41,948 nucleotides of DNA from Clostridia bacterium (GCA_017547445.1 JAFYPR010000119.1:1-41948), one strand, 5' to 3'. Shown: positions 6,357 through 34,941, counted from the stretch's first letter. Numbers and translations are program-made. Notes: generated by a model not told the origin, from the letters alone.

Positions 6357-6453
6357 GGAGACGACACCAAAGGGGACTGTCCCAACAAAATTCCGCAGAA
6401 TTTCTTTGGCTCATCGTCTCCCGATGATGCCAAAGGGGGACTGTCCCCTTTGG
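6357..6453. repeat. structured repeat family A, copy 1 (terminator-like hairpin flanked by two GGGACTGTCCC boxes)
   Basis: GGGACTGTCCC sits at 6373-6383 and 6437-6447. The central hairpin is AAATTC-CGCA-GAATTT (6388-6403), with GGAGACGA/TCGTCTCC and CCAAAGGGG/CCCCTTTGG pairings. It recurs at 31964-32037. Confidence 0.8.
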
Positions 6454-30838: not shown

Positions 30839-30870
30839 GATTATATTCCTTTCTTTTCTCTTATCAATTT

Positions 30871-31094
30871 ACTTTGATTAGGTAACTGCAACATTTTTAT
30901 AAGGTACGGGGACAGGGTAGCGAAGCGGCGACGAGGTAGTGAATGACAATCCGGTGGATTGTCAGAGCCGAGTCGAGACCGAACCGCGGTGAGATATGCT
31001 TTTTGAAGTCGGGCGACGACTTCAAAAAGAACATCTGCGGATGTTTTTTCACCCGCTGTCCCGCGTTGTGGGTTGCAGTAAAAGTTGTGGTTAC
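30871..31094 (+). repeat. structured repeat family C, copy 1 (fills the pyrH-frr spacer)
   Basis: Alignable end to end with 33639-33854. The 107-nt core 30907-31013 differs from 33675-33781 at 2 positions. Confidence 0.85.
30907..31049 (+). ncRNA. candidate ~140-nt structured small RNA (family C, copy 1)
   Basis: TTGATT (30874-79), 18 nt, TATAAG (30898-903) lies upstream. Hairpins are at 30945-30963, 30999-31029 and 31031-31044, followed by T6. The last stem is fully compensated in copy 2. Confidence 0.4.
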
Positions 31095-31097
31095 TTT

Positions 31098-31805
31098 TTA
31101 CTCAGTAACCAATGTACCAATCGCTTCGCCCATAACTGCACGGTAAATGTTTTCGGGGTCGTCTAAGCCAAACACCTGAATAGGCATCTTGTTGTCACGG
31201 CAAAGAGCAGTAGCCGTAGAGTCCATAACCTTTAAGTCTCTTGCCAGCACCTCTGAGAATGTAAGAGTATCAAACTTCTTTGCATCAGGGTTAACATGGG
31301 GGTCAGAATCATAAACACCGTCAACCTTCTTTGCAAGTAAGATTACATCCGCATTAATCTCAGCAGCTCTTAATGCCGCCGCAGTATCAGTTGAGAAGAA
31401 GGGGTTACCTGTACCGCAACCGAAAATCACCACTCTGCCACGGTTCAAGTGACTGTTTGCCTTACCGCGGATATAAGGCTCTGCAATAGCTCTCATTTCA
31501 ATGGCTGTCTGCACTCTTGTTGCAACATCAATAGCCTCCAAAGCAGAGCAAAGAGCAAGAGAATTAATAACAGTTGCAAGCATACCCATGTGGTCAGCAC
31601 GGCTTCTGTCCATATTTTCACCGCTTCTGCCTCTCCAGAAGTTACCGCCGCCTACAACAACGGCAATTTCCACGCCTGTTTCGGCGCACCTTTTAATTTG
31701 TTCACAAATTGCATCAATAGTAGGCTGGTCAAGACCGAAGCCCTTGTCGCCTGCCAATGCTTCACCGGATACCTTCAAAAGAACTCTTTTGTACTTAGGT
31801 TGCAT
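31098..31805 (-). CDS. pyrH: UMP kinase
   Basis: [13 protein letters not shown]-terminus, 235 aa. Confidence 0.95.
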
Positions 31806-31898: not shown

Positions 31899-32084
31899 AA
31901 AAAAAAGAGAGGAAAGTCAAATTCAATGTCATTAAGTTAGCATTTCGCATTTTCAGCCATTTCGGGACTGTCCCAACAAAACCTCGCAAGGCTTCTTTGG
32001 TTTGTCGTCTCCCGACGAACCAAAGGGGGACTGTCCCAAATGGCTTTTTCTTAACTTAATGACATTGAAATCAAATTCCTCTCT
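31899..32084 (-). terminator. very long compound hairpin plus T8 downstream of hydG, with repeat family A copy 2 at its apex
   Basis: Perfect 18-bp inverted repeat TTCAATGTCATTAAGTTA (31922-31939 / 32052-32069). The outer pairing is AGAGAGGAA/TTCCTCTCT (31906-31914 / 32076-32084). An A8 run (31899-31906) gives T8 after the 3' arm on the - strand. Confidence 0.6.
31964..32037. repeat. structured repeat family A, copy 2
   Basis: GGGACTGTCCC at 31964-31974 and 32027-32037. The central hairpin is AACCT-CGCA-AGG(C)TT (31980-31994), with the shared TCGTCTCCCGA segment. Confidence 0.8.
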
Positions 32085-33515: not shown

Positions 33516-33535
33516 TCCAATCACCTCTTCCTTAC

Positions 33536-33564
33536 ATTATATCACCCTGCCGCCTTTTCGTCAA
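33536..33564 (-). promoter_or_regulatory. sigma-70-type promoter for hydG
   Basis: The - strand reads TTGACG (33559-33564), 17 nt, TATAAT (33536-33541). Confidence 0.6.
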
Positions 33565-33638
33565 ACCCATTATTTACATAAAAGATATTACAAATTTATG
33601 ACGAAATAAAAAAGCGAGGGCGAAAACACTTCCGCTCC

Positions 33639-33854
33639 ACTTTGATTAGGTAATTGCAACATTTTTATAATGTGCGGGGACAGGGTAGCGAAGCGGCGAC
33701 GAGGTAGTGAATGACAATCCGGTGGATTGTCAGAGCCGAGTCGTGACCGAACCGCAGTGAGATATGCTTTTTGAAGTCGGGATACAACTTCAAAAAGGAC
33801 CTTTGCGAAGGTCTTTTCACCCACTGTCCCACGTTGTGGGCTTTAGTGAAGTTT
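33639..33854 (+). repeat. structured repeat family C, copy 2
   Basis: See copy 1. The right end is more degenerate than in copy 1. Confidence 0.85.
33675..33817 (+). ncRNA. candidate ~140-nt structured small RNA or leader (family C, copy 2)
   Basis: TTGATT (33642-47), 18 nt, TATAAT (33666-71). Hairpins are at 33713-33731 and 33767-33797, plus GACCTT-TGCG-AAGGTC (33798-33813) followed by TTTT. Confidence 0.4.
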
Positions 33855-33882
33855 TCGCTAAATTTAAAAAAGGAGACTTATT

Positions 33883-34941
33883 ATGAAAATCAAGAATCTA
33901 ATGGCAATTTCACTTGCCGCATTAACTTTATCCACGCCTGTGCAGGCGGCAAATCACACCGTAGTAAAGGGAGATACCTACTGGACAATTTCCAGACAAT
34001 ATGGTGTAGACTTCAAAACCCTGTTACAGGCAAACGGCGCAAATGAATCCTCATGGCTTGAGATTGGCGATATAGTCTATGTGCCCACCGAAAAGGTGCA
34101 TGTTGTATCAAAGGGCGATACCTACTGGCTTATTGCAAAGTGGTACGGGGTTGACTTTAAAACACTTCTAAAAGCCAACAATGCCACAGAAAGCTCATGG
34201 CTCGAAATCGGTGACAGGGTTATTATCCCCCAAGGCAGCTCCTCGTCAGGCTCAACAGGTTCATCAGGCTCAGCTTCCACAAAACCGTATGTGACTTATA
34301 CTACATATACAGTTAAATCAGGCGACACCTACTGGAACATTGCCAACAACTTCGGCATACCCATGGAGGAGCTTTTAAACACCAACGGGCTTACCGAAAA
34401 TTCCTCTATCTATGCAGGCAAAACCCTTAAAATTCCTGTTCATCACGTGCCCGTTACCTCTACCCCCGGCAGTCAGTATGGCGAATATCTCGACTGGTGG
34501 GAAGCTGCACAGTATGTCATCCCCGTAGGTGCAACATTCACCGTGCAGGACTTTTACACAGGTCAATCCTTTAAGGCAAAGCGTACCACAGGCTCGGGTC
34601 ATGCAGACTGCGAACCCTTAACCGCATCAGATACCTCTAAAATGAATACAATATTCGGCGGACAGAACTGGACAAGCCGTCCCGTTATAATTATCTACAA
34701 TGGCAGAAAAATTGCCGCCTCCGCCACAAGTAAGCTCCACGCAGGCAACGACGGAGCCGCAGGCGGTGTATGGACTTCTTGGCGAAGCGATGATTACGGC
34801 GCAGGCTATAACTTTGACTGGGTTAAGGGTAATAATGCTCACGGCGTATTCGACATTCACTTCTTAAACTCCATCCGCCACAATGACGGCAAGGTACACC
34901 AGACTCACCAAAAGAATGTCCGCACTTCCGCAGGCAAATAA
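33883..34941 (+). CDS. secreted protein with three LysM repeats and a C-terminal domain of unknown family
   Basis: Signal peptide MKIKNLMAISLAALTLSTPVQA and three ~44-aa LysM units (..KGDTYWTISRQYGVDFKTLLQANG..). I do not recognise the ~170-aa C-terminal domain. Confidence 0.85.
   Translation: MKIKNLMAISLAALTLSTPVQAANHTVVKGDTYWTISRQYGVDFKTLLQANGANESSWLEIGDIVYVPTEKVHVVSKGDTYWLIAKWYGVDFKTLLKANNATESSWLEIGDRVIIPQGSSSSGSTGSSGSASTKPYVTYTTYTVKSGDTYWNIANNFGIPMEELLNTNGLTENSSIYAGKTLKIPVHHVPVTSTPGSQYGEYLDWWEAAQYVIPVGATFTVQDFYTGQSFKAKRTTGSGHADCEPLTASDTSKMNTIFGGQNWTSRPVIIIYNGRKIAASATSKLHAGNDGAAGGVWTSWRSDDYGAGYNFDWVKGNNAHGVFDIHFLNSIRHNDGKVHQTHQKNVRTSAGK

Follow-up and report, generated by a model that had tools for sequence, protein, structure and literature searches.

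Does the hairpin-forming element that lies immediately in front of a LysM gene in a Clostridia MAG serve that gene as a regulatory leader, or is it a mobile repeat that came to lie there? The question arises from an earlier note on this 41,948-nt stretch of DNA (the whole of which is referred to below as the window), which had put forward both a cis-acting leader or attenuator on which LysM expression depends, and a mobile promoter-plus-terminator module that has been co-opted. We consider it quite likely that the element, referred to as copy 2, is a non-coding, modular selfish repeat that forms hairpins and has inserted in the 5' leader region of the LysM gene. The source MAG (G000) is 1.58 Mb in 122 contigs and 60% complete, and was compared with nine congeners (G001 to G009) and with genomes of other genera.

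Copy 2 occupies positions 33639-33865 of the window on the + strand, and a second copy of the same composite element (copy 1) lies at 30871-31097, also on the + strand, between frr and pyrH. The two form a 227-nt direct repeat with 88% identity and no gaps, far beyond chance, and the identity is 92% over the first 202 nt, which bears out their earlier assignment to one family (referred to as family C). Also upheld by the alignment is the clustering of their differences, which concentrate in the loop of hairpin H3, the stem of hairpin H4, and the right-hand tail; the H4 stems differ by three compensatory pair changes. The predicted folds of the two copies have energies of -67.5 kcal/mol (z = -4.0) and -75.2 kcal/mol (z = -5.2), the z values being relative to shuffled sequence. 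A search of the window against Rfam 15 gave nothing at gathering thresholds, and chance-level matches alone at E values up to 10.

Read along the + strand, copy 2 begins with a conserved, promoter-like 5' module (module P, 33639-33675). The promoter motifs described earlier, TTGATT at 33642-33647 and TATAAT at 33666-33671 with an 18-nt spacer, were verified at these positions and score 10/12 in a promoter scan. Next is the 5' arm of a closing stem (GGGGACAGGG, 33676-33685), which pairs in the predicted fold with the 3' arm CACCCACTGTCCC at 33818-33830; the family-wide boxes of this stem are GGGGACAGGG and CCCnCTGTCCC, the TGTCCC of the 3' arm being conserved throughout the family. Enclosed by the stem are a nested core of about 79 nt (TAGCGAAG...GTGAGATA, 33686-33764) whose hairpin P3 is at 33713-33731, the A/U-rich hairpin H3 (GCTTTTTGAAGT...ACTTCAAAAAG, 33766-33797), which is seen in the predicted folds and also in short family C copies, and the terminator-like hairpin H4 with its T tract (33798-33817), which was verified as GACCTT-TGCG-AAGGTC at 33798-33813 followed by T4 at 33814-33817 and whose stem covaries between copies. 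The element ends in a tail, ACGTTGTGGGCTTTAGTGAAGTTTTCGCTAAATTT (33831-33865, right edge approximate), with the family-shared ...GTGGGYTTTAGT... end. Module P, the closing stem, H3, H4, and the ...GTGGGYTTTAGT... tail together constitute what we refer to as the carrier. Downstream on the + strand, the LysM gene (33871-34941) has its SD sequence AGGAG at 33871-33875, as previously noted, and its CDS at 33883-34941, with the ATG at 33883.

In the LysM protein, a signal peptide and three LysM domains were recognised, and its C-terminal region has no family match. In its C-terminal half (window 34330-34938), the last ~200 residues match no Pfam or NCBIfam model and are 76-88% conserved in the genus, and the motifs GHADCEP and AHGVFDIH found there presumably resemble metallopeptidase sites.

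A dedicated cis-regulatory leader or attenuator of LysM, acting by regulated read-through of the element, would fit the position of copy 2 immediately upstream of the SD, and H4 with its U tract could attenuate. Our scan likewise gives no sigma-70-like promoter between copy 2 and LysM, so the gene indeed has no clear promoter of its own there. The orthologous sites of relatives, however, do not bear such a role out. hydG and LysM are divergent neighbours in 9/9 congeners, and five of these (G001, G002, G004, G005, and G006) have a repeat-free spacer, with 141-208 nt between the matched coding regions; G000 minus 33639-33865 aligns to these empty sites. In G007 and G009 the spacer holds a different member of the P family, inverted, with its P end abutting the LysM SD, in G008 an inverted mini family C element, and in G003 another small repeat. 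As 5/9 congeners are empty at this site and 3/9 carry an inverted family member, copy 2 is not a LysM-specific leader.

The inferred dependence of LysM on the element does not stand either. A promoter scan of three empty-site species found the hydG promoter alone and no sigma-70-like LysM promoter, and therefore the lack of such a promoter is ancestral and uninformative as to whether the gene depends on the element. In G007, G008, and G009 the antisense face of an element lies between any upstream start and the LysM SD, which suggests that read-through of such elements is tolerated. As for an attenuation mechanism, the centroid fold of the putative leader leaves the LysM SD unpaired, and a search of this fold for alternative pairing (terminator/antiterminator or sequestration of the SD) found none, one stable fold being predicted. 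In addition, the same element lies antisense between pyrH and frr as copy 1, and Rfam gave no leader match. We regard a dedicated LysM leader as very improbable, and the tempting annotation of copy 2 as a LysM leader or riboswitch-like element can be removed as wrong.

On the other side of the spacer, the hydG promoter (TTGACG, 17-nt spacer, TGnTATAAT; 33536-33564, - strand) lies outside copy 2, is directed away from it, and is conserved in relatives. To the left of the insertion is a genus-conserved block, ATTTACATAAAAGAT (33572-33586, no strand assigned), which is invariant in a five-sequence alignment and near-identical in G002 and G005. Judged by this conservation it is a candidate ancestral control region for LysM, or else an upstream element of hydG; inspection of the block by eye for a sporulation-sigma or WalR-type site gave nothing convincing. 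The insertion point of copy 2 would then be between the genus-conserved control block and the LysM ribosome-binding site. Also between the LysM SD and the hydG promoter, at window 33620-33635, is a small hairpin with a T run on the - strand, the position of which is kept in relatives while its sequence is not, and which looks like a - strand terminator shielding hydG. Both the frr-pyrH spacer (window 30840-31100) and the hydG-LysM spacer (33525-33882) are hot spots, being either empty or occupied by one of several different repeats, in either orientation, across the ten species. G004 and G006 have a minimal pyrH-frr spacer, and in G002 and G005 this spacer is free of repeats; in the other species it contains different elements.

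The mobile-module half of the earlier proposal is supported by the dispersal of the repeat and by its empty orthologous sites. A BLAST search of G000 found five long copies of the element, together with about eight short copies in which positions 1-47 are joined straight to 127-215, the core being missing. Module P itself, the first 44 nt of the element (ACTTTGATTAGGTAATTGCAACATTTTTATAAGGTAC), is present in about 40 copies in G000 with at least five unrelated interiors, all of which are closed by GGGGACA...TGTCCCC and end in ...GTGGGYTTTAGT... The module was found in 8/9 congeners and in none of the other genera searched, and the carrier is genus-specific. We surveyed the orientation of 40 P modules of G000 relative to neighbouring genes, based on crude ORF calls: between co-directional genes, 18 are antisense and 16 sense, while two lie between divergent genes and one between convergent genes, and most are only 1-30 nt from the flanking ORFs. 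Adding 57 loci from relatives gave 23 antisense vs 21 sense. The orientation of the family to genes is random and it has no gene-specific role, which leaves no tie to cell-wall genes. Tandem arrays also exist, e.g., four copies 141 nt apart in G007.

The same survey bears on the promoter of copy 2, which had been singled out as the better one of the two copies. Among 66 P copies, the -10 hexamer is TATAAG in 38, TATAAT in 10, and TATAGC in 6, and the T at -7 is missing in approximately 80%. Since TATAAT is common in the family, the consensus -10 of copy 2 is no sign of co-option. The four P copies of G000 that do have T at -7 all precede a co-directional gene, as a co-opted promoter would, but in the 66-copy set the 13 copies with a TAnnnT -10 have a co-directional downstream gene in 4 cases vs an opposed one in 7, and we rejected that explanation.

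H4 has a predicted folding energy of about -8.7 kcal/mol and is followed by four U only; a terminator scan left it uncalled on the + strand and called the reading on the - strand. By these predictions, H4 is a weak terminator. When we looked across family members for conservation of a functional promoter together with a terminator, we found a mostly defective -10 and a four-U terminator, and a strong promoter or terminator is hard to reconcile with insertions that lie in either orientation within gene pairs. With H4 this weak, transcripts that started upstream can probably read through copy 2. H4 may trim such read-through and P may add some transcription, both as by-products, so the effect of copy 2 on LysM would be incidental rather than designed. 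The chances that the P module of copy 2 fires at all seem to us about even, and it is rather doubtful that it is the main source of LysM mRNA. The locus thus offers an example of a selfish repeat that mimics a promoter-to-terminator cassette.

The core has a history of its own. Where G000 has copy 1, G007 has, in the same place and orientation, a family C element of the short form, which differs from copy 1 by a single clean gap of about 80 nt that extends from TAGCGAAG to GTGAGATA, exactly the stretch that we define as the core. The core is thus nested in the carrier, i.e., it is an 80-nt module that was separately inserted in the carrier loop. The core stretch (positions 44-124 of the element) occurs alone in other genera. 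A second nested module, of about 105 nt (GCGGTCAACTGTACCTGCTCTGACG...GATAGCTCAGCAA), was seen in six copies in G000, always inserted at the same position of P, with TATA on one side and AGGTAC on the other (contig positions C10:14136, C13:12152, C15:10663, C37:5406, C50:2763, and C62:12393).

The core consists of a mini-hairpin GCGAAGC that covaries to GTGAAAC and ACGAAGT, a stem P2 with tandem G.A/A.G pairs, an asymmetric loop with nAGUGAAU opposite AGAG, the hairpin P3, a GACCGA joiner, a small hairpin P4, and a GAGA. In 25 diverse copies, 12/21 pairs have changed on both sides and 90.5% of cells are paired; the covariation score of 0.296 is reached by 0/500 shuffles, and slid controls score 0.03-0.08. 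The covariation of the core is strong. An exact core pattern, which covers a variant with a P3 hairpin 1 nt longer than that in G000, matched 74 stretches in roughly 30 MAGs of gut and rumen Clostridia. A covariance model matched the core of copy 2 at 33684-33765 (model R1) and exactly five core copies in G000, and among 150 genomes sampled evenly across the class it found the core in 11 (8/108 genera), one of these genomes having at least 30 copies. The core is a widespread and previously undescribed folded element with a patchy distribution across gut Clostridia.

Searches for a known counterpart or partner of the core were negative. Rfam gave no match to the tRNA-adjacent core copies of other genomes, and clustering of ORFs within 2.5 kb of the 74 loci revealed no recurrent protein family beside the core. 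The exact core pattern had no match in viral contigs, a result of little weight because the pattern represents the 1-nt-longer variant only. Likenesses to a hairpin-ribozyme substrate, the hammerhead core, the P3 of the FMN riboswitch, Y RNA, integron attC, and ssoA CS-6 were also considered, and were rejected as none came with a model match or conserved positions.

The surroundings of the core differ among hosts. In many genomes it follows a tRNA or tmRNA gene at a distance of 60-100 nt, with both on one strand at 14/14 loci, just past the tRNA terminator and enclosed by T-arm-like arms (GGGATTCGAA...TTCGAATCCC). In the genus of G000 it is found inside the carrier, behind a promoter-like head and away from tRNA genes. 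In G066, a member of the same class, terminator-like hairpins hold it in their loop, and 17/22 copies have the same strand as the gene upstream. These G066 hairpins have the form CCCTCC...GGGAGG followed by TTTTT and are mostly at gene 3' ends, and the cores at the 22 loci have the loop variant CAAUGAAU opposite AGAA, compared with UAGUGAAU opposite AGAG.

The wobble pairs of the core (31 G.T vs 25 A.C) carry no strand signal. Its mismatches are nearly all G.A or A.G (145, vs 8 C.T), which favours the + strand as the folded strand. The folding energy is better on the + strand in 19/32 elements (p = 0.13), and in one subfamily the + strand fold is more stable by 5-10 kcal/mol. The signal for the + strand thus comes only from two features, the G.A pairs in tandem and the shared orientation of the core and tRNA genes, and the strand specificity of the G.A pairs, like the + strand stability of the one subfamily, fits RNA as well as single-stranded DNA.

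These features have to be weighed for a mobile small-RNA cassette, in which P would drive an RNA of ~140 nt (~33678 to 33817), the core would be functional, and partial read-through of H4 would feed LysM. The promoter score and consensus -10 of copy 2 fit such a cassette, as does the placement of P, which is always 5' of the hairpin and on the same strand, and small RNAs derived from MITEs are known (PMC10969869). The conserved unpaired bases and covarying stems of the core, its sharing of a strand with the tRNA or tmRNA gene before it and mostly with the preceding gene in G066, and the subfamily that is clearly more stable on the + strand also point in this direction. However, most P copies have a poor -10 without the T at -7, one half of the copies lie antisense within pairs of co-directional genes, the terminator is weak, the wobble pairs show no strand bias, and there is no Rfam match; the tandem arrays and the insertion polymorphism point instead to selfish DNA. 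We consider such a cassette unlikely. Its fuller form, a promoter-bearing mobile cassette spread by a RAYT, with the core of its ~140-nt product being a widespread, undescribed functional RNA (e.g., a protein-binding or catalytic fold) and copy 2 both producing this RNA and feeding LysM transcription, appears quite improbable to us.

A candidate for the enzyme that mobilises the carrier is present in the genus. Matches to Y1_Tnp were found in 8/10 genomes of the genus; G004 and G006 have none, and the match in G005 is weak or broken. In G000, the RAYT-like gene C7:10981-11715 encodes a protein of 244 aa with a Pfam Y1_Tnp score of 62.7 bits, and its best NCBIfam match is the REP-associated tyrosine transposase at 67.3 bits, below the 80-bit cut-off. 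The gene lies at a contig end outside the window (C7:10860-11784), with a hairpin of 10-bp stem, GGGGACGGGT...ACCCGTCCCC, upstream of it. Eight gene copies in relatives have direct copies of one long hairpin on both flanks, the conserved part of which is (T)GGGGAC(A/G)G...C(T/C)GTCCCC(A). The upstream flank in G000, ATGGGGACGGGTGC...GTACCCGTCCCCAT, nearly equals the closing stem of family C, GGGGACAGGGT...CACCCACTGTCCC. The stem boxes common to both are GGGGAC(A)GGGT and ACCC..GTCCCC, a likeness of only ~11 nt that was noticed post hoc, and elsewhere the sequences are different; the flank-type hairpin forms a small family of its own, with about seven further loci in G000, distinct from the P family.

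The number of elements also roughly follows the presence of the gene. We counted the pattern GGGGACA-N45-75-TGTCCC in forward and reverse, by which each palindromic element is counted once per strand, and obtained 32 matches in G000, 28 in G007, 20 in G001, 17 in G009, 12 in G003, 8 in G006, 6 in G008, 3 in G002, and none in G005 and G004, where control patterns read backwards gave at most 2 per strand. Genomes with no or weak RAYT (G004, G005, and G006) thus have 0, 0, and 8 matches, and RAYT-positive genomes 3 to 32. The co-occurrence is imperfect, as G006 has about four elements and no RAYT match and G002 has a RAYT and few strict hairpins, and the ten genomes are related and not independent. 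A constant GTAG-type tetranucleotide was sought beside the closing stem and none was found (TACG, AGTG, or AATG is there), GGTAG occurring in the nested core only. The flanking hairpins and the counts are what one would expect from a REPIN/RAYT system (PMC3116915, PMC5581495, PMC3733652). In a REPIN-like mechanism, the single-stranded DNA of the carrier would fold, and the RAYT-like Y1 (HUH) transposase would copy it in trans; from the shared stem boxes and the counts we give mobilisation of the carrier by this protein about a one-in-two chance. For the core, a Y1 transposase as partner was rejected: G066 has at least 30 cores and no Y1_Tnp, so the core must have another way of spreading. An IS200-like tnpA in contig C1 was rejected as partner of the carrier, since the gene is truncated and its flanks are unrelated.

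Alternatively, the carrier might be a classical MITE instead of a single-stranded DNA element of the RAYT/REPIN type, and be moved by a DDE transposase from an IS with the same ends. Traits of a MITE are present, the element being a short, multi-copy, non-coding sequence whose orthologous sites may be occupied or empty, and its ends have a weak inverted similarity (ACTT...CAAC vs GTTG...AAGT). Against this, we found no convincing terminal inverted repeats or target-site duplication, in a comparison with empty sites taken from other species, where exact junctions are not legible; among metagenome contigs, an exact-pattern search for an empty site of the same species had no match. The ends look more like direct repeats: GTGGGTTTTAG precedes many P modules and recurs at the 3' end of the element, and a direct GTGGGYTTTAG motif is common to both ends. 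A longer element sharing these ends was not seen, the truncated tnpA in C1 has unrelated flanks, and the conserved feature of the family is a long internal hairpin and not its termini. In one long family C copy in G000 (C13:24700-24914), the first 27 nt of P are absent from the 5' end and are found, inverted, at the 3' end, as if the body of the copy were inverted relative to the -35 half of P. Although such an inverted half-P counts in favour of a MITE, the probability of a DDE-moved MITE is in our view low.

Three known systems come closest: REPIN/RAYT, the BOX/RUP/SPRITE repeats of pneumococcus, and the Correia elements with their promoters. Like REP and REPIN elements (Bertels and Rainey, 2011, PMC3116915; Di Nocera et al., 2013, PMC3733652; Bertels et al., 2017, PMC5581495), the carrier is an intergenic, non-coding hairpin repeat with two inverted stem boxes. 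The genus likewise has a RAYT-type Y1/HUH gene in few copies per genome, flanked by hairpins with the same stem boxes, and the element load roughly tracks its presence; group 1 RAYTs have been reported from Clostridia (PMC3116915, PMC3733652, PMC5581495). Unlike REPINs, the carrier elements are 120-310 nt long and have a large variable loop cargo, a 44-nt promoter-like 5' module, and a conserved 3' tail. Unlike REPs, they have no GTAG tag beside the closing stem, and GTAG REPs were unreported from Firmicutes in a 2013 survey (PMC3733652). Two further differences are that the RAYT-flanking hairpins here are a separate small family that shares only the ~11-nt stem boxes with the carrier, and that the protein falls below the NCBIfam cut-off (67 vs 80 bits).

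With the BOX elements of Streptococcus pneumoniae (Croucher et al., 2011, PMC3049150) the carrier shares a modular architecture, no sequence relationship between them being known: it has conserved end modules, variable internal modules, and nesting. As with BOX, RUP, and SPRITE, its elements are confined to a single species or genus, occur inserted in each other and in clusters, and are extensively structured; terminator-like modules are shared with SPRITE. The pneumococcal repeats have been judged parasitic but likely to affect co-transcribed genes (PMC3049150). In contrast to them, the carrier belongs to a different host class, has a nested core common to many genera, and has a candidate Y1 transposase partner. 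The Correia elements (CREE) of Neisseria have clear terminal inverted repeats, a TA duplication, and experimentally shown promoters (PMC10969869). Similarly, the carrier is a small repeat with sigma-70-like promoter sequences, often just upstream of genes, and like CREE it can sit between a promoter and a gene and place hairpins in transcripts (PMC10969869). It differs from CREE in its mostly defective -10 and in that no terminal inverted repeats were seen.

Taken as a selfish repeat, copy 2 points to a REPIN/RAYT-like system in uncultured gut Clostridia, whose hairpins would tolerate large and exchangeable cargo; REP families from Firmicutes are absent from the published surveys consulted. 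One such cargo is the 80-nt module, which is conserved and covarying across many genera and has no known function. Three things become testable: an action of the RAYT-like protein on the closing stem, the nature of the core as RNA or as a site in single-stranded DNA that folds, and how commonly such insertions rewire the expression of neighbouring genes.

Another repeat family of the window shares a box with hairpins beside a RAYT-like gene. The window's family A repeats (6373-6438 and 31964-32029) contain a palindromic box, GGGACTGTCCC, which is also present in the hairpins that flank the RAYT-like gene of G003, where the flank contains GGGGACTGTCCCC, the box of family A. CCAAAGGGGGACTGTCCCCATTGG occurs at eleven loci in G000.
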